Of a stretch of 64,000 nt of DNA, positions 6,394-63,604 are shown in pieces (positions within the stretch are counted from its first letter, which is position 1; each line of letters begins with the position of its first letter). Both the position numbers and the translations under genes were made by a program. The notes under the pieces are model-generated. The model did not search any database. It was not told the origin of the DNA and saw only the letters and a program-made list of their open reading frames with translations. This DNA is from Sphyrna mokarran (taxonomy: Eukaryota), in the NCBI GenBank assembly GCA_024679065.1, contig JAGIQG010000004.1, positions 47,802,001 through 47,866,000 of the forward strand. The letters are read 5' to 3'.

Positions 6394-7349
6394 TAATGGT
6401 CGTTGTGTACACCATAATCAGGACAAAAGAGAAGTAGATCAGCAAGTAGTGGTTAGGTAATGAGAAGCATGAGCCTTAATGGCTTGAAAAGTATAGGACC
6501 AAATATAGAATATTGCAATGCAAAGGCATAGACCAGAAATCTTAAGTTTCTCCCTCTCTCCACAGATGCTGCCTAACTTGCTGAGTATTTCCAGCATTTT
6601 CTATTTTCATGTGTTACACGGTTGTGTTATGCGAGGAGAAGCAGAATATGGCATCTTTTGTCAGGCAGGAGATATTCAGACAATCATTTGCCATTATGCA
6701 TATGTTTGGGGGTGGGGGTGATGGCATTATGTTGGTAATTTATACTGAACACCCTCTCCATTTCCTATTCTTCTCTTTATTTAATACAGACAGTTTTCAT
6801 CCAATTCTGAGCATCACGGATTCACAGCAGTAAGCTGTTTGCAACTCATCACCAGTTAGTCATTTCCTCTCAGATATTTTGTGAAACTATCTACAGCGCA
6901 AAAATGTAAATTTATTTGCAATTCCAGGGCTGAGGATCAAGTACTTGGTGCAAAGTGAGGGGCTCAAAGTTACTTCTTTCCAGTGCTGTACTTGGTACCC
7001 ATAAAGATTCTTTCCTTAGAAGTGACCTATCTTCACTTTGAGAAAACCAGCTATCTACGGTGTCATGTAAGACGGATGGAAAGTAAGAAAACTAGACAAG
7101 AATCTGTGAAGGCACTAGGAGCTTGAATACAGATTTTGTTGGTGTCAGAAGTTGGTGCAATCTGGGGGCAGCTGTTCTTTTCTTATTCTGAAGAGGTTGG
7201 CTGAATGTGTGTGGGGAAGGTTTGGGCCAATATCCCAGGCATTAAACTGCCCCTTTGTGGTTGCAAAGGCAAATAGAAGCTGAGAAGGAGAAGAGGCCAG
7301 CAGGGGAAAAGCTGATGAGAGCGTTACAGTCTGAGTCACTAAGCCCAAG

Positions 7350-7548
7350 GCAAAATCCTGCGGATGCTGGAACCTGAAACAAAAACAGAAAATGCTAGGG
7401 AAACTCAGCGGGTCCGACAGCATCTGCGGAGACACAATAGAGCCAATGTTTCAGGTCAGGGTGGCCTTTCGTCAAGCAACATTGGCTGTATTTTCTCTTC
7501 ATTGATGCTGTAAGACCTGCTGAGTTTTTCCAGCATTTCTGTTTCTGA
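7350..7548. mobile_element. PLE-derived fold-back repeat (family 1) with degenerate hammerhead core
   Basis: aaacagaaaatgctagggaaactcagc...gctgagtttttccagcatttctgttt arms are inverted; minus strand reads TGACGAAAGGCCACCCTGACCTGAAACATT. Confidence 0.7.
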
Positions 7549-11974: not shown

Positions 11975-13117
11975 AGTCCTACTATATCCTTCTATCTGCA
12001 GACCGCTCATGTGGCTGTCCAAGAGACCCTTAAACAACCCTAGCGTGCCTGCTCCCACCACCTTACTCGGCAGTGCATTCCACACCCCACTACCCTTTGT
12101 GTGAAAAACTGGCCTCTAATATTCATCTTATACATAGCCCCCCTCACCCTGAGCCCGTGACCCCTCATTCTATCCATTTCTAATGGTGGAAAAAGCTTAC
12201 CACCATTTACTCTATCTATACCCCTCATAATCTTATATACCTCTAATAGGTCCCCTCTCAGCCGACGTCTTTCAAGGAAAAACAACCCCAGTGCGTTCAA
12301 CCTTTCTTCGTAAGACAGCCCTTCCATACCAGGCAGCATCCTGGTAAATCTCCTCTGCACTCTCTCCAGGGACTCCACATCCTTCCGGTAGTACGGCGAC
12401 CAGAACTGGACACAGTACTCCAAGTGAGGCCTAACCAACGTTCTATACACTTGCAACATTAGACTCCTACTCTTGTATTCTATACCCCTTCCTATGAAGG
12501 CTAACACACCATACGCTTTCTTTATCACATTCTCCATCTGTACTGACACCTTCAGAGACTTGTGAACCTGCACCCCCAGGTCTCTCTGCATCTCTATACT
12601 CCGGATAGTTTTACCTTTTATCCTATAACTCCCCCCTACATCTTTCCAGCCAAAATGCATCACCTCGCATTTATCCGGATTAAATTCCATTTGCCATCTA
12701 TCTGCCCAATCTACCAACCTATCTATGTCCTGTTGTATTGCCTGGCACTGCTCCTCAGTTCCTGCCAATCCAAGCATCTTAGTGTCATCATCAAATTTGC
12801 TGATCACACCACCTACCCCCTCTTCCAAGTCGTTTATATAAACCACAAATAGAAGAGGTCCTAGTACTGAGCCCTGTGGCACACCACTAGTGACACACCT
12901 CCAGTTGGAAAAAGAGCCTTCCACTACTACCCGCTGTCTCCTCCTCCCAAGCCAGTTCTCAACCCATCTACATACCTGGCCCTGTATCCCATGCGCCTTC
13001 ACCTTTTTATCAGCCTACCATGGGGAACCTTGTCAAACGCCTTACTGAAATCCATGTAGACGACATCAACGGCTTGTCCTTCATCAACCGTTTTTGTCAC
13101 CTCTTCAAAAAATTCCA
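11975..13117 (-). mobile_element. CR1 LINE (copy B), 5'-truncated RT, relatively young
   Basis: ORF 12040..13002, 320 aa, with [19 protein letters not shown] and RPHLEYCVQFWSP. Confidence 0.95.
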
Positions 13118-15430
13118 CTAGTTCTGCTATCTTTTCTGGGTTTTTGCAATTCATGCACAAGGACCCCGGGTCCCTCTGCACTGTAGCACGCTGCAGCTTT
13201 TCGCCCTTTAAATAATAATCCTTCCTACTATTATTTCTACCAAAGTATATAACCTCACATTTGCTAACATTATACTCCATCTGCCAGGTCCTTGCCCACT
13301 CATTCAGACTATCCAGATCTCTCTGCAGATTTTCTGCATCTTCCATGCAATTTGTTTTTCCACTCATCTTTGTGTCATCAGCAAATTTTGTTACCCTACA
13401 CTCAGCCCCTTCCTCCAGATCGTCTATGTAAATGGTAAACAGTTGAGGCCCCAGTACCGATCCCTGCGGCACTCTAATAGTCACCAACTGCCAACCAGAA
13501 ATAGCACCCATTGATTCCAACTCTCTGCTTCCTATTAGATAACCAATCCTCAATCCACGCTAACACCTTACCCACAACTCCGTGCACCCTAATCTTTTGC
13601 AGTAACCTTTTGTGAGGCACCTTATCAAACGCCTTCTGGAAATCTAAAAACACCACATCCGCCGGTTCCCCTCTGTCTACTGCACTAATCACATCTTGAT
13701 AGAAATCCAATAAATTTGTTAAACATGACTTCCCCTTCACGAATCTGTACTGCATCTGCTTGATCAAACCATTCTTTTCTAGACGCCTTGCTATTTCTTC
13801 TTTGATGATGGATTCTAGCATTTTTCCAACTATGGACGTTAAGCTAACTGGCCTATAATTCCCTGCCTTTTGTCTGCTATCTTTTTCAAATAGATAGCAT
13901 TTATTTGAAATAAATAAATGCTATTATTTATTTACTTATAATAAATAAATTATTGTTTATTATAGCTTAATGTTAGCTGTTTTCCAATGCTCTCGCACTT
14001 CCCCAGATTCCAGCAAATTTTGATAAATAATTACTAAGACATCTGCTATTACTTCTGCCATTTCTTTCAGAACCCTGGGATGCATTCCATCCGTCCCCCG
14101 GACTTGTCTACCTTCAGTCCCGTTAGTCTGTCAAGCACTACCTCTCTAGTGACAGTAATTGTATTAAGGACCTCATCTCCTACCATCCCTCTATCTTTAA
14201 TATTCGAAGGCTATCTGTGTCCTCCTCCGTGAAGACCGACACAAAATACTTATTTAAAGCCTCAGCCATTTCCTTGTCACCCACTGCTAAATCCCCCCTA
14301 TTGTCCTCCAAGGGTCCAACATTCACCCTAGCCAGTCTCCTCGTCTTTATATATTTGTAAAAACTTTCACTATCATTTTTTTATATTTAGAGCTTCATAC
14401 TCTATCTTTCCTTTCTTTATCGCTTTCTTAGTCATTCTTTGCTGTTTTTTAAATCTTTCCCAATCTTCTAATCACCCCACTATTTTTAGCCGCTCTGAAC
14501 GCTTTTAATTTAATACTCTCCGTTATTTCCTTCAATAACCACGGCTGATTCTTAATGGTAAAGAAGGACTGTAACTTACAGTCCTTCTTTACCATTAAGA
14601 ATATATTTCTGCTGAGTACTGAAAAAGATCTCCTTAAAAATCTTCCACTGTTCCTCAGCTGTCCTACCAATCAATCTGCGCCCCCAATCTACATTTGCCA
14701 ATTCCGCCCTCATCTTATCACACTCCCCTCTGTTCAAACAGAGGACACAGGTTCGGAACCCTACGGTCTCATCCTCTATCTGCATCAGAAATTCAACCAT
14801 ACTATGATCACTCGTCCCAAGAGGATCCCTCACAAGAAGATCCCTAATTCCACCTGCCTCGTTACATAGTACCAGATCTAAGATAGCTCGCTCCCTCGTA
14901 GGTTCCATTACATATTGTTCAAGGAAACTATCCTGACAGCATTCCAAGAACTCTTCCTCAAGCCTATCACGTCTGACTTGAGTCAACCAATCAATATGCA
15001 GGTTAAAATCCCCCATAATTATCGCCGTTCTGTTTCTGCACTCATCAATTATTTGTTTGTTTATAGCCTGTCCTACCTCAAAATTATTATTTGGGGGCCT
15101 ATGAACCACACCCACCAGTGACTTTCTCCCCTTACTATTCCTTATCTCCACCCACAACAACTCCACGTTTTGCTCCTCGGACCCTTTATCTTCTCTTACT
15201 ACCGCCCTGATATTATCTTTTATTAACAGAGCTACCCCACCTCCTTTTTCCTCCTGTCTATTCTTCATAAATGCCTGATATCCCTTGATATTCAGTTCCC
15301 AATCCTGGTCACCCTGCAACCATGTTTCCATAATGGCCACTAGATCATACCCATTTGTGCTGATTTGCGCCATCAGCTCATTCACTTTGTTCCAAATGCT
15401 TCATGCATTCAGGTAAAGTATCTTTATACC
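13118..15430 (-). mobile_element. CR1 LINE (copy A) ORF2: APE endonuclease and RT, frameshifted
   Basis: ORF 14576..15385 (ETWL, GGGVALL, IIMGDFN, SDH) plus RT ORFs 13474..13821 and 12999..13553. Confidence 0.95.
14548..14602. repeat. Perfect 27-bp-arm palindrome with 1-nt spacer inside CR1
   Basis: ATTCTTAATGGTAAAGAAGGACTGTAA-C-TTACAGTCCTTCTTTACCATTAAGAAT. Confidence 0.97.
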
Positions 15431-33142: not shown

Positions 33143-35561
33143 TCCCTATAACTGACACTCTGTCTTTTCCTGGTTTCTCCATCCACTATTAAACAATACA
33201 TTGATTATTTTGCATAGGAGTGCAGTTAATGATGGTGATATGACACGACTGCTGCCGGCTGCACAACATTCATAAAAAAAACTCTCAGACTGCATGGAAA
33301 CATCTAGATTCTATTATTAGGCAAATCTATCAAAACTTCTGAAAAAGTCTCATTTTAGGACTGTCATTACCACCTAACCATATTTTTAAAAGACAGCAGT
33401 TATTAAATTCTACTGTTCTATGATATTAGACAAATCCATTAAAGGCATACTGATAAATCATGCCCTTTGACAAGCACTGTCTAAAAAGCTTGCATGTAAT
33501 GTACATGCACTGTTTGTAGATCCATCATTAATATAAAACCCTTTCAAGCTAGAAAGCATAGAGAACTTGTGGTACAGTGGATAGCATTGCTGCCTCTGAG
33601 CCAGAAGTTTCGGGTTTGAGCCTCACTCGAGGTTTTGATCGTAAAGGAAGGTGTGTTCATAATGTGGCCAAACAGAATCATAGAATCAGGATCCCTACAT
33701 TGCAAAAGCAGGCCATTTGGTCCAGCGAGTCTGCACCGAAAACAATCCCACCCAAGTAAAAGCAAAATACTGCAGATGCTAGAATCTGAAACAAAAACAG
33801 AAAACGCTGGAAAATCTCAGCAGATCTGACAGCTTCTGAGCGGAGCGAATAGAGCAATATTTCGAGTCGAGGTGACCTTTTGTCAGAGCTGAGAGCAAAG
33901 AAATCAACAGAGTTTTATACTATAAAGATGGGGAGGGAGGTAGTGTGGGTGGAATGAGACAATAAGAATCTAAATGAGGATACAGAAGGTTGAGAAGTGC
34001 AAAAAAAGTGATCAGAATGCATGAATGGCAGAACAGAGGTGTGGATTATTAAAGGATTGCCTCAAAAATGTGGCAGTTGCCCTGTAAATGGCTGAGGGAA
34101 GGGGTGAGGGGAGGGGGGGCAAGAAGGAGAGCTGGGATGAAAAGTGGAAATATGAAGGTGAGAAAGAAGGATGAAAAAATGGATGAATAGGGTGAAATAA
34201 AAATAAAATAAATGGAAAAGAGGTGAAGGTGGAGGAGAGAGTTCATCCTATGAAGTTGTTGATCTTAATGTTCAGTCCAAAAAACTGTAAAGTGCCCAAT
34301 CAGAAGATGAGGTGCTGTTCCTCCAGTTCCTCCTTAATGAGTACTTTGCATTGGTATTCACAAAGGAGAGGGACACGTTGATTGATGGCATCTTGGAGAG
34401 GTGTGTAAAGCCTGTACAGCAAGTCATCATTATGAGGGAGAAACTGTTAGGTGAAAAGCATTAAGGTAGACAAATTCTCAGAGCTAGATGGCATCTATCT
34501 CAGATTACTGAGGGAGATAAGAGATGAAATTGCTGGGCCTCTAACAGATATCTTTGTTTCTTCGTTGACTACTAGTGAGGATTGGAGGATACCAATGTGG
34601 TCCCATTATTTAAGAATGGTAGGAAGGACAACCATCAGTGATAGTGAAACTGTTGGAGAAGATTCTTAGGAAAAGATCTATACACATTTGAAATTGAATG
34701 GTCTTGTTGGCGGCAGACATCATAGTTTTGTACATGGGAGGTCATGCCTCACTAACTGGGTTATTTGAGGAGGTGACAAATATGATTGACAAAGGAAGGG
34801 CTATAGATATTGTCTACATGGGCTTAGTAAGGCATTTGACAAAGTCTCTCATGGCAGACTGGTGCAAAAGATTAAATTTCACGGGATCAGTGGTGAATTA
34901 GCTAAATGATTCAGAACTGGCTTGGCCACAGAAGCCAAAGGGTAGCAGTAGAAGGGTGTTCTTCTGAATGGAGGTCTGTAACCAGTGGTGTTCCGCAGGA
35001 ATCAGTACAGAGACCTCTGTTGTTTGTAACACATATAAAGAAGAAAATGTAGCTGGTTTGATTAGCAAGTTTATGGATGACACTAAGATTGGCAGAGTTG
35101 TGGATAGTGATGAAGATTGTCGGAGAGAACAGCAGGATATAGATAGACTGGAAAATTGAGTAGAGAAATGGCAGATGGAATTTAATTCGGACAAATGCGG
35201 GGTGATGCATTTTGGTGAGTCCAATTCAGGTGGGAGCTATAAAATAAATGGCAGAACAATCCGGAGCATAGACATACAGAGAGATCTGGGAGTATAGGTA
35301 CACAGGTCCTAGTGAAGCACAGGTGGAAAGGATGGCGAAGAAAGCACTCTTTCATCAGACAGGGCATCAAGTATCAAAGTTGGCAAATTATATTACAGTT
35401 GTATAAAACATTAGTTTGGCCACATTTAATGTCTATTGGCCTGTGGCTCTGACATCCATCATTGTGAAGTGCTTCGAAAGGTTAGTCATGGCACGAATCA
35501 ATTCCAGCCTCCCAGACTACCTAGATCCACTACAGCTTGCCTACTGCCACAACAGGTCCAT

Positions 35562-36642
35562 GATGTAGAGATGCCGGCGTTGGACTGGGGTAAACTCAGT
35601 AAAGTTTGACAACACCAATTTTAAATCCAACCGATTTAATTTATAGTAAATCCACGAGCTTTTGGTCTTTGTGGTCTTTGTCAGGCGAATGGGGTGTTCT
35701 GGTCTCCAAAAGCACACATATCAGCACAGACAGTTTACAGATTGCTGATTAGAATGCGAATCCTTACACCTAACCTGCTATTCAAGTCTTAAAGTGGCTA
35801 ACAGCAGAGGTTAGAGGGATGTGTACTCTCTCCAGACAGCACAGTAAGTGAGGTTTTTTGCTAACCCAGGCAAGTCATGGGGGTTACAGATAGTGTGACA
35901 TGAAGCCAAGATCCCTGTTAAGGCCGTCCTCATGTGTGTGGAACTTGGCCATCAGTCTCCGCTTGGCGGCTCTGCACTGTCAAGTGTCGTGAAGGCCCCC
36001 TTGAAGAACATTTACCCGAAGATCGGAGGCCGAATGTACCATTAGTAGTCTACCTAATACGTTGCAAGAAAGGATGTCCCGAAGCATGGTACATTGGGGA
36101 GACCATGCAGACACTACCACAGTGGATGAATGAACATCACTCAACAATCACCAGGCAAAACAGTTCCCTTCCTGTGGGCGAATACTTCAGCAGTCACGGG
36201 CATTTGGCCTCCGACCTTCGGGTAAATGTTCTTCAAGGGGGCCTTCACGACACATGACAGTGCAGAGCCGCTGAGCGGAGACTGATAGCCAAGTTCCACA
36301 CACATGAGGACGGCCTTAACAGGGATCTTGGCTTCATGTCACACTATCTGTAACCCCCATGACTTGCCTGGGTTAGCAAAAAACCTCACTTACTGTGCTG
36401 TCTGGAGAGAGTACACATCCCTCTAACCTTTGCTGTTAGCCACTTTAAGACTTGAATAGCAGGTTAGGTGTAAGGATTCGCATTCTAATCAGCAATCTGT
36501 AAACTGTCTGTGCTGATATGTGTGCTTTTGGAGACCAGAACACCCCATTCGCCTGACGAAGACCACAAAGACCGAAAGCTCGTGGATTTACTATCAAATA
36601 AATCGGTTGGATTTAAAATTGGTGTTGTCAAACTTTACTGAG
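35562..36642. mobile_element. Penelope-like element (family 2) with 442-bp inverted arms around a GIY-YIG segment
   Basis: Arms 35595-36036 and 36201-36642; ORF 35934..36257 VVYLIRCKKGCPEAWYIGET; 13-bp TSD ACAACAG(G/A)TCCAT at 35549-35561 / 36643-36655. Confidence 0.92.
36548..36586 (+). ncRNA. Degenerate minimal hammerhead ribozyme motif
   Basis: TTCGC-CTGACGA-AGACCACAAAGACC-GAAA-GCTC-GTGGA: core boxes and helix I present, helix II pairs poorly. Confidence 0.5.
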
Positions 36643-39600
36643 ACAACAGATCCATAGCAGACCATCTCCCCGGCCCTGCACTCAACACTGGAACACCTAG
36701 ATAACAAGGACACCTGTGTCAGACTTCTATTTATTGATTTCATCTCAATCTTTGGCACCATTATTCCCATGAGACTCATCTCCAAACTCTGGGCCTCAGC
36801 ACCTCCCTCTGCAACTGGATCCTGAGCTTCCTAACTCAGAGACTGCAATCAGTAAGAATAGACAACACCTCCTCCACAATGATCCTTAATACCTGTGCTC
36901 CATAAAGCTGTGTTCTCAACCCCTCACTATACTTCTATGACTGTGTAGCCAAATTCCCCTCTAATTCAATTTTCAAGTTTGCTGACGACACCACCATAGT
37001 TAGTTGGATCTCAAACAATGATGAGACAGAGCACAGGAATGAGATAGAGAATCTGGTGAACTGGTGTGGCAACAATAATCTCTCCCACAATATCAACAAA
37101 ATGAAGGAAATTGTCATCGACTTCAGGAAGCATAAAGGAGAACATGCCCTGTCTCCATCAACAGGGATGAAGTAGAAAGGATCAAGAGCTTCAAGTTTTT
37201 TGGTGTCCAGATCATCAACAGCCTGTCCTGTTCCCCCATGACGAAACTATTGTTACAAAAACCCATCAATGCCACTACTTTCTCAGAAGACTAAGGAAAT
37301 TTGGCATGTCAGCTACAACTCTCATCAACTTTTACAGATGGACAATAGAAAGCATTCTTTCTGGTTGCTTCACAACTTGGTATAGCTCCTGCTCTGCCCA
37401 AGATCGCAAGGAACTAAAAAAGGTCATGAATGTAGCCCAAACCGACCGCCCATTCATTGACTCTGGCCACACTTCCCGCTGCCTCGGCAAAGCAGCCAGT
37501 ATAATTAAAGACCCCACCCACCTCGGACCTTCCTTTTTCTCCTTCTTCCATTGGGAAAAAGATTCAAAAGTCTGAGGTCACGTACCAACCGACTCAAGAA
37601 CAGCTTCTTCCCCATGCTGTCAAACTTTTCAGTGGATTTATCTTGTATCAAGTTGATCTTTCTTTACATCCTCGCTATGATTGTAACACTACATTCTGCA
37701 CTATCTCCTTTCCTTCTCTATGAATGATATGTTTTATCTGTCTAACACGTAAGAAACAATACTTTTCACTGTATGTTAATACATGTGACAATCAAATCAA
37801 ATCAAAAATCAAAACATAAAATACTGTGTTCAGTTCTGGTCACCATACTACCAGAAGGGCGGGAGGCTTTGGAGAGGGTGCAGAAAAGGATGTTACCTGG
37901 TAAAAAAGGTATTAGCTATGAGAAGAGATTGAATAAACTGGGATTATTTTTCCTTTAAAGATGGAGGCTGAGGGGCAACATAATAGAAGTTTATAAAATT
38001 ATAAAAGGTATAGAGAGGGCAAACAGTTGGAAGCTTTTTCCAGGGCAGAAGTGACAAAGGAGCACGAGTTGAAGATAAGGGGAGAAAGGTTCAGTGATGT
38101 GCGGGTGAAGTTTTTTTCACACAGAGGGTGGAATGCACTGCCAAGTGAGGTGGTTGAGACAGTTACATTAGCTACATTAAAACTTATCTTGATATATGTA
38201 CAAACAAATGGGGAATAGAGAGATATAGGCCATTGACATAGATAAACAAACGTGATTGGCACAGGGTAAGAGGGCCAAAGAGTCTGTTCCTGTACTGTAC
38301 TGTTCTTTGCGTTGGGGTTTACTAGAACATTGCAGAAGGCCAAGGACGGACTTGTGGATAAGATAGCAGGAAAACGATCACCCAGTCTCCATTTGGACTC
38401 TCCAATGTATAGTAGATTGCATTGAGAGCAGCGAATGCAATAGACCAGATTGAAGGAGGTGCAAGTGAAAGGGGTATTTAGGACCTGACAGCGAGCAGAG
38501 AGGAGGTAAAGGGGCAGGTGTTGCACCTTCTACGAAAACATGGGGAACTACAGTGGACAGGAGATGAGGTGTTGGGTATGATGGAGAAATGGACAAGAGT
38601 GTCCTGGAGAGAATGGTCTCTGTGGAATGCTGATGAGAGAATGGGAGGAAGATGTTTGGCATGGTGGCGTCGTGCTGGAGTTGGTGGAAATGGCGGAAGA
38701 TGATCCTTTGAATGCGGAGACTGGAATGTGAAGACACCTAGTCCCTATCTCCATAAATCACATATTTACCCTGCTAAAACTCCTGACATTAAGGAACAAT
38801 TTGTCATGGCTAACCAGCCTAACCCACACATCTTTGGACTATGGAGGGAACCCATGCGAACATGGAGAGACAGTGCAAAATCCACACAGTCACCCAAGGC
38901 TGGAATTGAACTCAGGTCCCTGGTGCTATGAGGTAGCAGTGCTAGCTGTAACAGATTGAATATCAATCCGCAAAAAGCTTCCAACATGCCAAAGGCAGAT
39001 GGGAAGAGCGGAAGAGACTCTTGGTCAGCCACGTGTGATGCAGAATGGTATTCCTAAAGCTATAGGTAAAAATTAGTTCCAGATGACCATAGTTGCAGAT
39101 GACCACGGGCTGTTCTCCTCTTTGAGGGGGAAAGCTGACTGATGGTGATTTAAGCTGGGGATCACCACATCCCAGGCCAGAATTAAGATTGAGGACGGCC
39201 TTCCTAAATAACCTCAGCTGCTATGAAAATTGAACCCTCAAACACAAGCCTTTGGCGTTAGGCTAGCAAGCTATTCCAGGAAATAGTTCATTATGGGAAT
39301 AGTTTGCCGTCTTGTGCATCACTAGTGCGGGAAGTGAAACAACAACAGAGTAGAAATTATACAAAATAACACGGATGAATGCAGAGAGTTCCTCACTGAA
39401 TTTGGACTTTCATATGCACTCTAGCCATTTGTGCAATCCACAATGATTACCCATTAATCCTATATTGAGGAATATCTCTATCATCACAATCTGTCGGTGT
39501 TAGATCATGGTCATTGATCTGCAGGTTAACATTCGAATAGTTGTCACATAAGATCAAAACAAGTCAAAGAGGACAGTGTCGATAAAGCCTATTTCAGAAT

Positions 39601-43437: not shown

Positions 43438-45772
43438 CACAAAAAGGAACATAGAACAATACAGCACAAACAGGCCCTTCGGCCCACGAGTTGCGCCGAT
43501 CACATCTACCAATCCACAGAGCTATCTATAACCCCCTATCCTATTCGTTTCCATATACTCATCCAGAAATCTCTTAAAAGATCCCAGTGAGTTTGCCTCA
43601 ACAACCTCCGACGGCAGTTGGTTCCATTCACTCACCACCCTCTGAGTGAAAAACCTACCCCTAACATCTCCTTTGTATTTGCTTCCCTGCACCTTAAATC
43701 TGTGTCCTCTCGTAGTAACCATTTCAGCTCGGGGAAATAGTCTCTGAGAGTCCACCCTATCTATCCCTCTCACCATTTTATAAACCTCTATCAGGTCGCC
43801 TCTCAACCTATGTCTCTCCAGTGAGAAGAGTCCCAGCTCCCTCAACCTATCTTCATAAGGCCTGCCTCCCAATCCAGGCAGCATCCTTGTAAATCTCCTC
43901 TGAACTCTCTCAATAGCCTCTACATCCTTCCTATAATGAGGCGACCAGAACTGCGCACAATACTCCAACTGGGGTCTGACAAGAGTCTTATAGAGCTGCA
44001 TCATTACCTCCTGACTCCTAAACTCTATTCCTCGATTAATGAAGGCCAGTACACCGTACGCCTTCTTGACCACTTCCTCCACCTGCGAGGCCAATTTAAG
44101 AGTCCTATGGACCCGGACCCCGAGATCCTTCTGCTCTACAACACAGCTAAGACTCCTACCCCTTATATTGTACTCCTTCATCCCATTATTCCTGGACCAC
44201 TACACATTTATCTGCGTTGAAGTCCATCTGCCACTTCTCCGCCCAGTCTTGCATCCTGTCTATGTCCCGCTGCAACTTTTGGCATCCCTCCAGACCATCC
44301 ACAACACCACCAATCTTTGTATCGTCGGCGAACTTGCTAACCCATCCCTCCACTTCTTCATCCAGGTCATTTATGAAAATGACAAACAGCAGGGGTCCCA
44401 GAACAGATCCCTGGGGCACTCCACTGGTTACCGACCTCCATGCAGAACAAGACCCATCCACAACCACTCTCTGCCTTCTGCTGGCAAGCCAGTTCTGGAT
44501 CCACGAGACCAAAGCCCCTTGGATCCCATGCCCTCTCACCTTCTCCAGAAGCCTTGCATGGGGGACCTTATCAAACGCCTTACTAAAGTCCATGTACACT
44601 ACATCCACGCCCTTCCTTCGTCAATGTGTTCAGTCACATTTTCGAAGAACTCAACTAGGCTCGTAAGGTATGACCTGCCCTTGACAAAACCATGCTGACT
44701 ATTTCTAATCAGTCCAAACTTCTCCAAATGTTCATATATCTTATCCCTCAGAAGCCTCTCCATCAGCTTACCAACCACTGAAGTCAAACTCACCAGTCGG
44801 TAATTTCCTGGACTATCCCTGTTCCCTTTCTTAAAGATAGGAACCACATCCGCAATCCTCCAATCCTCCGGAACCTCTCCTGTTTCCACGGACGACGCAA
44901 AGATCATCGCCAGGAGCTCTGCAACCACTTCCCTCACCTCCCACAATAACCTGGGGTACATCCCATCCAGTCCCGGCGACTTGTCTGTCTCGATAGAATT
45001 TAACAGGTCTAACACACCCTCTTTCCTAACATCCACATACTCAATCTCTTCTGTATGCCATAAATCTGCAGTGCAATCTCCCAGTTCACTTTCCACTGTG
45101 AATACCGAGACAAAGTACTCGTGAAGCACCTCTGCCATTTCTTCCGGATTCACACAGACTTTTCCCCCTTCACATTTTATAGGCTTCTCTTCTCATCCTT
45201 TTACTTTTCACATATTGGTAGAAGGCCTTGGGATTCTCCTTAATCTTACCTGCCAAGGCCTTCTCGTGACCCCTTCTGGCTCTCCTAATTTCTTTTTTAA
45301 GTTCCCTTCTACACACCTTATACTCCTCTAGATCCCTAACATCCCCTAGCTCTCTGAACCTTCTATATATCTTTTTTTTTCTTCCTAACTAGGTTTACCA
45401 CTACCTTCGTGCACCACGGTTCTCGCGTCCTACCAGAACCTCCTTGACTCCTCGGAAAGTTGTCTTGCAGTGCCCCAGACAAACATTCCTTGAATATCCG
45501 CCACTTTCCTTCTGTACTCTTCCCCAAGAACACCTCCTTCCAGTTTATGCGTCAAATTACCTGCCTAATGTTTTCATATTTCCCCTTACTCCAGACATAC
45601 ACCTTCCTAGCCTGCCTGATCCTATCTCTTTCCATCGCTATCGTGAAAGAGATAGAATTATGATCTCCATTCCCAAGATGCTCACCTACCGTGAGATCCG
45701 ACACCTGTCCTGGCTCGTTAGCTAGCACCAGGTCAAGTACAGCCTCTCCTCTCGTAGGCTTTTCCACGTACT
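43438..45772 (-). mobile_element. Young 5'-truncated CR1/HER1 LINE (about 2.3 kb)
   Basis: Long, nearly clean ORFs 43522..44181, 44186..44608, 44599..45153, 45552..45779; intact 3' tail; candidate TSD GTGTCAA (43431-43437 / 45773-45779). Confidence 0.95.
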
Positions 45773-45867: not shown

Positions 45868-46077
45868 AACATAGAAAATGCTGGAGAAACTCAGCTAGTC
45901 CAACAGCATCTGCAGAGAGAGAACATAGCCAGTGTTCTGAGTCTGGATGACCCTTCGTCATACTCAAAATGTTGGTTCTATTTTCTCTCCCCAGATACTG
46001 TCAGATCTGTTGAGTTTCTCCAACATTTTCTTTCTTTTGTTTCAAATTCCAGCATCTGCAGCATTTTGCCTTTATTA
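45868..46077. mobile_element. PLE family-1 fold-back repeat
   Basis: agaaaatgctggagaaactcagc...gttgagtttctccaacattttct arms are inverted; minus strand reads TGACGAAGGGTCATCCAGACTC. Confidence 0.75.
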
Positions 46078-52792: not shown

Positions 52793-53028
52793 CAGTAAGA
52801 AGTCTCACAACACCAGGTTAAAGTCCAACAAGTCTATTTGGTAGGAAAGTCACTAGCTTTCGGAGCACTCACTGCTACTTTGTCAGCTGAATCACCTGAC
52901 GAAGGAGCAGCGAGCGCTCCAAAAGCTAGTGGCTTTTGCTACCAAATAGACCTGTTGGACTTTAATCTGGTGTTGTGAGACTTCTTTCTGTGTTTACCCC
53001 AGTCCAATGCCGGCATCTCCACATCATG
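52793..53028. mobile_element. Miniature palindromic PLE family-2 element
   Basis: About 95-bp inverted arms (52793-52888 / 52891-52990) plus a one-sided tail TGTTTACCCCAGTCCAATGCCGGCATCTCCACATCATG. Confidence 0.88.
52892..52932 (+). ncRNA. Minimal type-I hammerhead ribozyme motif (one core substitution)
   Basis: TCAC-CTGACGA-A-GGAGC(loop)GCTCC-AAAA-GC-TA-GTGG; helices I and II pair; GAAA reads AAAA. The opposite arm keeps GAAA but has CTGACAA. Confidence 0.65.
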
Positions 53029-53331
53029 ATAGACATGCAGCCCAGAATTTACCACCTTTTATGCCAGCGAGATTTTCCCATCCCGCTGCAGGGAATGGAG
53101 ATTTGGCTGGCCACCAAATTCTAAAACCTCGCTGCAGCGGGAATGTAGCATGAACAGCCGGTAAGAACATGCCTTCAGTGTCACGTTTACAATGAAACCT
53201 ATTATATCCTAAACTCCAGCTATTGAGACTACCTAGATACTTCCTTGCTACATGTGGGGCAATCATGGGTTTGCATTAACATTACACAGTCACAGAACAC
53301 TTATGCTCAAGGGTATGACAGACTGCCCCTA

Positions 53332-58399: not shown

Positions 58400-59008
58400 C
58401 TTTTATTTGATTTAATATTAGTCACATATACGATCATACAATGAAAAGTGTTGCTTCTTGTGCGCTATGCCGACAAAGCATATCGTTCATAGAGAAGGAA
58501 ACGAGACAGTGCAGAATGTAGTGTTACAGTCATAGCTAGGGTATAGAGAAAGATCAATTTAATGCAAGATAGGCCCATTCAAATGTCTGATGGCAGCAGG
58601 GAAGAAACTGTTCTTGAGTCAGTTGGCATATGATCTCGGACTTTTGTATCTTTTTTCTGATGGAAGAAGGTGGAAGAGAGAATATCTGGGCTGCGTGGGG
58701 TCCTTATTTATGCTGGCTGCTTTGCCGAGGCAGTGGGAAGTGTAGAGAGAGTCAATGGATGGGAGGCTATTTTGCATGATGGATTGGGCTACATTCACAA
58801 ATTTTTGTAATTTCTTGTGGTCTTGGGCAGTGGAAAAATCATACCAAGGTGTGTTACAACCAGAAAGGATGCTTTCTATGGTGCATCTGTAAAAGTTGAT
58901 GAGAGTCGTAGCTGACATGCAAATTTCCTTAGTCTTCTAAGAAAGTAGAGGCATTGATAGGCTTCCTTAACTATAGTGTTGGCATGGGGAGACCAGAATA
59001 GGTTGTTG
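58400..59008 (-). mobile_element. Rex1/Babar-like LINE 3' fragment inserted in a tRNA-SINE
   Basis: ORF 58619..58918 MSATTLINFYRCTIESILSGC, near-identical to ORF 37306..37575. Confidence 0.88.
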
Positions 59009-60960: not shown

Positions 60961-62283
60961 GGCTGGAATTCTCCCAAAAAAAATTCGAAGTGTTGAATTT
61001 GTGTGAACACTGGCAACATTCACGTTTTCTTCATGTGAGTTCAGAATAGAATCTCCCACACTCTATGCACTAGAAAGGCTGTCAGTGTGAATATCATTAA
61101 AAACTAAGGGGCAGGGCCTATTCCTGAGCTGAATGGACTACCAGTGCTGAGATTGGCACATGTGCAGTGGCCCTGCACTGCCAGCTCCTGACTATAGGCC
61201 ATGCCTGCGATCCCACATCGTCGGCTGTGTGACTTCCCCCACCTCCAATGGCCTGACTGCTGGCCCCCACCTGACCATTGTAAGAATTCTCACAACAACA
61301 GATTAAAGTCCAACAGGTTTATTTGATAGTAAATGCCACTAGCATTTGGAACGCTGCTCCTTCATCAGGTTAGTGGAGAACTCTCCACTCTTGACGAAGG
61401 AACACCATTCCGGAAGCTAGTAGTGTTTACTACCAAGTAAACCTGTTGGACTTTAACCTGATGTTGTGAGATTTCCTACTGTGTTTACTCCAGTCCAATG
61501 TCGGCATCTCCACATCATGACTATCCCTGACTATTTCAAGGCCCACCCCCTCCGACATCCCCCCTCCCAACCCGCCCCGATCTCAGCTCTTTCAATACCT
61601 AAACCCTCCCCAATCCCCAACCTCCCCAGCTACCCCTCCCCCCACCCCGCGGTAATTCCGACCCTCCCAGCAGGTTGACTACAAAACTCCAGCACGCCTG
61701 ATCGTTGGCCTCCCTCCTTCCCCTACCGATTCTTATGTAGAATGGCAGCAGAACCTGCTCCCCCATTTCCACTGATTACCTCCTAGGCCTTGACCTTTAA
61801 CAAGCCCACCCTATATGCCCCGCCACCTAGCACTGCCCTGTGCCCGATGGGCAGTGCCTAGATTCCCCTATGCATGGGCATTTTGCCCTTTGGACAGTGC
61901 CAAGGAGCACAGGAACCCCTGACCCGTTGGGGTGCCCTGATTGCGCCCCCTTCACTCCAGCGGGATCAGGCATTACCTCCTCACTGGTAGAGAGCTAATA
62001 TAAACCCCACCGGAGTGAACCATTCTGTTGGGGAAATGGGGCGGGGGAGAGATGCTTGCGAGCCTGGAGACTTCAATCTCAGAGTCCATTAATTGTATTT
62101 AAATCACATTCAAATGATCATTTAAATGGCCTTTGTGCCTTTTTTTGACACCACCAGAAATCCAGTGGTGGGAGACGGTAGTGGGTGCGAATGCACATGT
62201 GAACCCCATGAACTGACCAACGTGACAATCTCCCAGCCCGCCGCACTAAAAAATTAGAGCAGTGAGATGGGAGAATCACAGCT
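60961..62283. mobile_element. Harbinger-type MITE, family H1 (reverse orientation), with a nested mini-PLE
   Basis: TIRs GGCTGGAATTCTCCC / GGGAGAATCACAGCT, TSD GAT; the start is the reverse complement of the ends of the other two H1 copies. Confidence 0.75.
61280..61519. mobile_element. Miniature palindromic PLE family-2 element
   Basis: Inverted arms with hammerhead-like cores (minus: CTGATGAAGGAGCAGCGTTCCAAATGCTAGTGG) and the same one-sided tail as 52793-53028. Confidence 0.88.
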
Positions 62284-62757: not shown

Positions 62758-63604
62758 CAGGCTTTTTCAAAGTGGGGTTTGCAATCTATGGGTGGATCGC
62801 AGGCAAGTATTAAAAAGGTCGTAATATTCCCCAAAGATCACCTTATTTAGGTGCCAAGAACTGCACACACTACAGTTGCAGCCAAATACCTCTCCCTTGG
62901 CACCTCCAACTGTAAGAGGCAACAGTGAACAGGTCAGCATGTTCTGCATGTACATTACTTAGGAACTGCACACACTACAAATGCAGCCAAATATCTCTGC
63001 CTTAATTTATACTCCTTTGCAATCTCCAAGAGGCAACAGTGAGTAGGTTAGCATGCCCTGCATGATTCTTTGGCACCAAGCTTCCTGTATGTATATGCTT
63101 CTGGCAGGAATTCACTTCAACGCGAGCTTCTTCTATTTGCAATCAAGGCAACAGGACAGTCAACAGGGACCATTTTTTTATAAGAGATGGCCAGACACTA
63201 ATAAACAGTGTACCCACTAACCAGGATTTCACATTGGAACCTGCTGGAGAGTGCTGCTCCAGAGAGTCCACAACAGGATACAGCAATGTTTGCTCTAGTA
63301 AGAAATCTCACAACACCAGATTTACGTCCAACCAGTTTATTTGATAGTAATCCCACTAGCTTTCAGAAACGGTGTTCCTTTGTCAGATGTGTGGAAGGTA
63401 TGCTGGCATCTCTACATCATGACTGTTTGCTCAATACAGAACACCAGGCTCTCCAGTGAACAGCCTACAAAGAAAAAACTAAAATCGGGAACAAATCAGC
63501 ATAAAAATGAGTTCTTAAGGTATGGTTTTGTTAATATTGCCAACACAAATCAGGATGCAAAACCCATGTGCATTATATGTGGGGAAATACTGGCGAATGA
63601 GTGA
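62758..63604 (+). mobile_element. hAT (Charlie/Buster-like) DNA transposon 5' part
   Basis: TIR-like CAGGCTTTTTCAAAGTGGGG; peptide NEFLRYGFVN...KPMCIICGEILANE resembles the zinc-finger N-terminus of Buster/ZBED5-type transposases. Confidence 0.78.
63297..63423. mobile_element. Mini PLE family-2 element with most of the right arm deleted
   Basis: Left arm plus tail ATGCTGGCATCTCTACATCATG; 9-bp TSD TGTTTGCTC (63287-63295 / 63424-63432). Confidence 0.82.

Follow-up and report, generated by a model that had tools for sequence, protein, structure and literature searches.

Layout of four related insertions

A stretch of 64,000 nucleotides from Sphyrna mokarran (contig JAGIQG010000004.1, positions 47,802,001 to 47,866,000 of the forward strand; hereafter the window) contains short non-coding hairpins with a hammerhead-like motif in either arm. 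The locus raises the question of whether such hairpins are copies of a small mobile unit, as proposed in the initial annotation, or fragments of a larger retroelement that took this shape anew at each site. Searching the window with the arms (BLAST and nhmmer) returned four insertions, copies A, B, C and D, and no other; all four were examined whole (n = 4).

Copy A (52793–53028) is composed of two inverted arms of ~98–100 bp and a one-sided tail of ~38 nt: a tail-less arm at 52793–52892, which is a pseudo-LTR (pLTR) end with its sense on the minus strand, a tail-bearing arm at 52893–52990 (plus) and a 38-nt tail at 52991–53028 (plus). Copy B (61280–61519) likewise is an inverted pair of arms, ~98–100 bp each, with ~38 nt of tail on one side (tail-less arm, 61280–61379, minus; tail-bearing arm, 61381–61481, plus; tail, 61482–61525, plus). 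Both thus have the layout first ascribed to them, and they are predicted to fold into long rods from which the 3′ tail hangs free (folding z of −17.4 for A and −14.3 for B, with none of 200 shuffles as good). Copy C (63297–63423) retains a single tail-less arm (63297–63402, minus), joined via a 3-nt overlap to the last 22–24 nt of the tail (63400–63423, plus). It had been described as a deleted copy; its content of one arm and part of a tail agrees with that description, and the overlap is compatible either with a deletion or with a primary lopsided insertion, either of which may have produced it. No ORF is present in A, B or C, which measure only 127–240 bp.

The tail is ~36–38 nt long in A, B and D and occurs at one end only. 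On the tail-bearing arm of copy A, the top-listed loose ends of contigs fell at the arm end and at the tail end in all four public DNA runs; among the positions listed for X1, 1121 contigs ended at 52986, and 1066, 1295 and 1065 at 53026–53028. The flanks at these loose ends are unrelated (agreement 0.33–0.37). Fixed loose ends with unrelated flanks indicate an abundant family with two fixed 3′ ends, in keeping with the consistent outer ends noted at the outset, and by the counts of contig loose ends sharks hold thousands of such insertions. An ATG closes the tail in A (at 53026–53028), B, C and D; that an ORF might start at this ATG is an idea suggested by the letters, and no full-length shark ORF with its DNA was found among the protein relatives described below.

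Target-site duplications (TSDs) are clear in two of the four insertions. The duplication is an exact 9 bp in C (63287–63295 and 63424–63432) and 13 bp with one mismatch in D (36643–36655, plus, the partner at 35549–35561 overlapping the tail end by 3 nt); both score 9, and none of 299 random pairs reaches 8. Copy B is adjoined by a possible, weak TSD of 10 bp with one mismatch (61270–61279 and 61526–61535), matched in quality by 22 of the 299 random pairs, and none is convincing for A, where the best score of 2 is at chance level.

Rare joints between tails were also seen, in which an arm end (52982–52992) is connected directly to a tail end (53026–53029) on the opposite strand. Of the joints listed, those of this kind are found in 23 contigs of run X1 and in 42 of run X14. 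They could be tandem hairpins, insertions of the element into its own end, or products of self-priming on sense RNA.

Copy D is a long, coding member of the same family

Copy D (35559–36642), which lies in the opposite orientation to A–C and was absent from the initial list, consists of two 442-bp arms, between which there are 11 mismatches, together with a spacer of 164 bp and a one-sided tail. The tail (35559–35594) and its arm together span 35559–36036 on the minus strand and comprise the end of an ORF, a 3′ UTR and a hammerhead remnant with G8A and G12A; the plus-strand spacer (36037–36200) begins with an 11-nt filler and continues as GIY-YIG coding sequence that runs into the plus-strand tail-less arm (36201–36642), which holds the same ORF end and 3′ UTR and a hammerhead with an intact core. 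Over its terminal 110 nt, D shares 80% identity with A (E = 6e-22), DNA identities of 77–80% tie A–C to D, and the arm end and tail end of D align with those of the three short copies. Copy D interrupts a reading frame, presumably that of a LINE RT, and the peptide NRS is repeated on its two sides. A search of the window for empty sites, made with the flanks of A, C and D, found no second copy of any of them.

Read through spacer and tail-less arm, the coding sequence is the closing part of a GIY-YIG protein; it is interrupted once, by an in-frame stop at 36255, ahead of the true stop at 36351–36353. Pfam PF01541 matched this coding piece weakly, below its cut-off (E = 0.011), and 21 of 27 candidate proteins matched the fragment, the best named ones being from Mustelus and Scyliorhinus at 81–86% identity. 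Longer protein relatives carry an RT together with GIY-YIG and a CX4CxxC linker; this linker, of the CX2-5CxxC type that precedes GIY-YIG and is described as marking the Neptune and Nematis clades (PMC8557442), is present in close relatives and falls outside copy D itself. Taken through the D fragment and these relatives, the sequence points to an element that combines a PLE-type (Penelope-like element) RT with a C-terminal GIY-YIG domain. The ends and tail that D shares with A–C, together with its GIY-YIG fragment, bear out the Penelope-like pLTR origin first proposed for the hairpins. They also bear on the notion that the hairpins are a MITE derived from a DNA transposon, a reading for which their short, palindromic, non-coding form and high copy number might speak: the asymmetric tail, the variable TSDs of 9–13 bp and the continuity with a GIY-YIG/RT ORF all argue against a MITE, and copy D refutes it unless its similarity to A over 110 nt were a matter of chance, so that we regard this reading as barely credible.

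The in-frame stop and the broken helix II described below are common to both arms of D; its template therefore probably carried these defects beforehand and was mobilised in trans, and with 11 mismatches over 442 bp the copy is young. Among the positions listed, the two arms agree at 15 of 17 picked as carrying X1 minority letters. This counts in favour of the twin-priming account given below; shared letters of this sort are also compatible with homogenisation at a later time or with a subfamily of small size. The filler (36037–36047) is not family sequence. Five of its nucleotides (36041–36045) are complementary to adjacent coding sequence (36054–36058), and it may have been templated locally.

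Hammerhead motifs are decayed in every arm

The complete motif that the initial annotation assigned to each arm has no exact match in the window. The core is broken in six of the seven arms, and the seventh, the tail-less arm of D (C3 at 36553), combines an intact core with changes at 36562 and 36571 that disrupt helix II; a CUGANGA plus GAAA..UH core with both helices I and II intact occurs in none of the seven, and only the majority letters of the family provide it. The two arms of A do carry distinct core lesions, as had been noticed. In the tail-bearing arm (plus strand; nucleotide numbers as used in PMC4209133), the remnant consists of helix I (52893–52895 and 52929–52931), the core (52896–52902) and helix II (52904–52908 and 52916–52920), with G12A at 52921 and the predicted cut after 52928, and the left, tail-less arm (core C3 at 52886) has G8A and, in addition, changes in helices I and II. 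Copy B shows G12A and A15.1U in its tail-less arm (core C3 at 61368), and C3U, A13G and a mismatched helix II in its tail-bearing arm; copy C, which holds one hammerhead remnant only, has G8A (core C3 at 63386). A hammerhead search, which had been suggested as a check, likewise gave no match with Rfam at gathering score in the window and none at E ≤ 10 around A. The best of the 10 Rfam matches around A are miRNA models far below their gathering scores, which is explained by such models fitting any long hairpin.

At positions of D, the letters in the majority in X1 (36562, G, 88%; 36571, G, 96%; 36583, C, 64%) bring back a helix II of 4 bp along with Watson–Crick pairing in helix I. Between the A/B type and these majority letters three pairs are changed on both sides, namely helix II pair 3 (A-U to C-G), helix II pair 4 (G-C to C-G) and helix I pair 2 (A-U to G-C), in a comparison of two subfamilies only, with the X1 letters unphased. 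Covariation in helices I and II, as the initial annotation had anticipated, suggests on sequence grounds that the ribozyme has been under selection in the source elements, and it sustains the assignment of the motif to the minimal type-I hammerheads of Penelope-like pLTRs. With those of metazoan PLEs, as described in PMC4209133 (Cervera and de la Pena 2014), the shark arms have in common the core, the extra nucleotide before helix II, G10.1-C11.1, a palindromic 15.2–16.2 and a short helix I; they differ in a helix II of 4–5 bp and in being decayed. Sharks are not named in the available parts of that paper.

Minimal PLE hammerheads are reviewed as cleaving in dimeric form (PMC6765202). Within the full hairpins, helix II is predicted to form with a probability of ~1e-14 in A and ~1e-13 in B, and forcing helices I and II to form would cost 40.5 (A) and 38.1 (B) kcal/mol. 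Given this folding cost of ~40 kcal/mol, and given that an antisense arm is transcribed first whichever strand is read, cleavage within the hairpins appears unlikely from the modelling, and we infer that their ribozymes are inactive. The expectation that a transcript of either strand would contain a ribozyme accordingly holds at the level of the letters and fails in the predicted fold.

All seven arms include the core and pass through the predicted cut, and the RNA templates were therefore uncleaved there. This speaks directly to the possibility that ribozyme cleavage sets the 5′ ends of the copies, which would sit well with selection on the source element's ribozyme, as the covariation suggests. 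With every arm extending beyond the cut, the seam of copy A lying 36 nt upstream of it and cleavage reported as unnecessary in vitro for an anole PLE (PMC11167929), we consider that possibility very improbable.

Seams differ between copies and, in the short ones, cluster upstream of the core

Counted from the first base of the core, the arms of copy A end at −5/−6 (tail-less) and −3/−4, and those of B at −11 (tail-less) and ~−12, the tail-bearing arm of B starting 10–12 nt before the core. In C the tail-less arm ends at −16 and the other side is tail only, and in D the arms end at −352 and ~−505 nt. The three short copies hence have three different seams. Nonetheless, the five short-arm ends all fall 3–16 nt upstream of the core, level with helix I or slightly beyond it, and the ends of the tail-less arms in three of the four insertions span no more than 13 nt; four simple truncation models put the chance of such a cluster at 0.004–0.05, for a window that was picked afterwards. 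On this basis the clustering of short-copy seams upstream of the ribozyme core, one of the checks proposed in the initial annotation, is probably real, and it perhaps marks the 5′ end of the RNA, as read from the sequence.

Alignments of read contigs break near the hammerhead, at the longer loop II of A and the variant helix II of D, and the joints that they sample lie elsewhere. Among the joints listed for D, 8 of 15 pass from one strand to the other; these lie scattered, with an asymmetry of 37–400 nt, and each is represented by one contig per run. Depth along D in X1 is ~3–4 million at the ORF end, 0.8–1.1 million over the hammerhead and 6–7 million after it. We rejected these depth profiles as profiles of truncation: summed contig depths follow subfamily divergence, and there is no clean step at the hammerhead on D.

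If the 235-bp hairpin were a non-autonomous unit, transcribed and re-copied whole by PLE protein in the manner of a SINE, the similar size of A and B and the clustering of seams would follow, the rare tail-to-arm joints listed for X1 and X14 could be tandem units, and there would be precedent in the non-autonomous derivatives reported for PLEs (bioRxiv 10.64898/2026.07.22.740005; PMC8557442). Three short copies with three seams, however, are not one SINE-like family. Moreover, loop II is 4 nt longer in both arms of A at once, both arms of B being free of the extra nucleotides, and the outer ends are also those of the long coding copy D. Amplification as a unit, offered at first as one of two readings, thereby becomes improbable. 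Arm identities are 88.8% for the A pair, 81.4% for the B pair and 89.5% between the right arm of A and the left arm of B; arms being no more alike within than between these insertions, a same-template origin of the two arms is weakly supported for A and B. One letter, at 52949, is present in both arms of A and makes up ~2% of the depth in X1.

A narrower version, which we find just as doubtful, would have a subset of the shark 235-bp hairpins existing as a mobile fold-back RNA of its own, a ‘retro-MITE’ copied by Penelope protein with both ribozymes locked in the rod; the rare tail-to-arm joints might then, with equally slight probability, be traces of tandem or circular copies. If true, such a unit would constitute a non-autonomous retroelement of a new kind.

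Twin priming as the probable origin of the hairpins

We consider it probable that the hairpins are extremely 5′-truncated, head-to-head insertions of an abundant shark PLE, formed separately at each site and not as a unit. The endonuclease would nick both target strands ~9–13 bp apart; one target 3′ end would prime a cDNA at the position in the RNA corresponding to the end of the tail, and the other would prime a second cDNA ~38 nt further upstream on the RNA. Both cDNAs would extend toward the 5′ end of the RNA, where their free ends would be joined, and the product of such twin priming would have inverted arms, a one-sided tail and a TSD. For the short copies the template would be an uncleaved RNA that starts just upstream of the hammerhead, with run-off after ~100 and ~140 nt, whereas long copies such as D would derive from a longer, read-through template. 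In Drosophila virilis Penelope, a start site is reported 46 bp ahead of an intron that ends next to helix I (PMC2377424; PMC4209133).

The steps that we infer from the structure of the copies are the priming of both strands, the run-off at the 5′ end of the RNA and the joining of ends. Copy D bears its tail on one arm and a 164-nt extension on the other, and no single cDNA that folds back on itself makes both; D is thus a useful case that excludes the simple single-cDNA version of the fold-back during reverse transcription put forward initially. Both arms have the appearance of antisense copies that proceed inward, each starting at a target 3′ end of the strand it lies on. The anole PLE was reported in vitro to nick and extend both target strands, with starts at the two sites that bound the tail and an unprocessed RNA as template (PMC11167929), and these two tail-bounding starts favour two separately primed cDNAs; the 11-nt filler of D fits end joining. 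The anole element, the Poseidon element PAc of Anolis carolinensis (Frangieh et al. 2024), has in common with the shark element a two-ended tail and a template uncleaved at the hammerhead. Judged by the CX4CxxC linker of the shark relatives, PAc probably belongs to another clade, and the assay as described did not reconstitute inverted insertions.

The main rival is that self-priming of an antisense RNA makes the hairpin, as modelled by Arkhipova 2013 (PMC3846280), and that the endonuclease trims the tail off one arm, the origin of the tail being as in Craig et al. 2021. The near-palindromic seams of A and B are in its favour, and it fits C and D too: the unpaired spacer of both belongs to the tail-less arm, as the model requires, and both of these asymmetric copies are longer on that arm, as it predicts. 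Against it stand the two RT starts that bound the tail in vitro, with both target strands extended (PMC11167929), and the filler at the seam of D, which is foreign to the family. We hold this rival to be unlikely, while taking it seriously.

Alternatively, two cDNAs might be primed as in twin priming, with the RT stalling or jumping at the hammerhead structure or a bound protein while the RNA continues beyond. The five short-arm ends at or just past helix I would suit such an obstacle, but at that point the RT has already passed the whole motif, and the 3-bp helix I is weak, with a modelled probability of 0.0015 in a lone arm. Stalling therefore also seems unlikely to us, if anything a little more so than antisense self-priming.

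Relation to known elements

Under the preferred reading, the shark hairpins are ordinary debris of a known class of retrotransposon. Several hallmarks of EN+ PLE insertions are found here, namely an inverted 5′-truncated pLTR copy, a 30–40-bp tail at one end and a short, variable TSD. As far as the published descriptions extend (Craig et al. 2021, PMC8557442; PMC3846280; PMC2377424), such insertions and the shark copies have in common head-to-head arms, a 30–40-bp one-end tail, TSDs of 8–10 bp, a palindromic seam, a pLTR hammerhead and GIY-YIG at the C terminus; an inverted 5′-truncated copy with a 30–40-bp tail at one end is given as typical of PLEs (PMC8557442; PMC8969392), and in Pen2a_Av of Adineta vaga the pLTR is inverted, the tail measures 31 bp and the TSD 9 bp (PMC3846280). 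Copies A, B and C differ in having no ORF, in their size of 127–240 bp and in seams that crowd upstream of the hammerhead. Dual minimal hammerheads on opposite strands, 100–700 bp apart, were tied to truncated PLEs as early as 2014 (PMC4209133). The architecture is accordingly not new, contrary to what had been supposed: it is already contained in PMC4209133, PMC8557442 and PMC3846280. A description of this particular hairpin family was not found among listings of the literature on Penelope elements in sharks, elasmobranchs and catsharks and on non-autonomous inverted pLTRs.

Non-LTR retrozymes (bioRxiv 10.64898/2026.07.22.740005; PMC7229834) are, according to these sources, similarly small, non-coding, hammerhead-bearing and derived from PLE pLTRs, and are likewise present in a chondrichthyan. 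They are head-to-tail tandem repeats with intact ribozymes, whereas the shark hairpins are head-to-head and dispersed with broken cores, and a retrozyme identity was rejected for this reason. The hairpins are useful as a record of how inverted PLE insertions form, a mechanism treated as unsettled in PMC8557442.

Other features of the window

A domain scan of 21 of the 41 long ORFs in the window returned LINE domains and one ALKBH8_N match, and no host gene. The ALKBH8_N match (Pfam, E = 5e-7) lies at 37171–37572, immediately downstream of the reading frame into which D is inserted, and is probably repeat-derived and not a gene. A decayed LINE with endonuclease and RT domains occupies the minus strand at 12040–15400, with related pieces at 34900–35300, 37200–38040, 43750–44600 and 58400–58990.

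A second short repeat family is represented at 45868–46036 and 7345–7547, with further copies at 6553, 25342, 27060, 28278, 33757, 40963 and 53784; BLAST gave no kinship between it and the hammerhead arms. It too occurs as close inverted pairs, with 78-nt arms 13 nt apart. Immediately to the right of copy A, at 53060–53120, starts another repeat, less abundant than the hairpin family, with loose ends at 53071 in all four runs.
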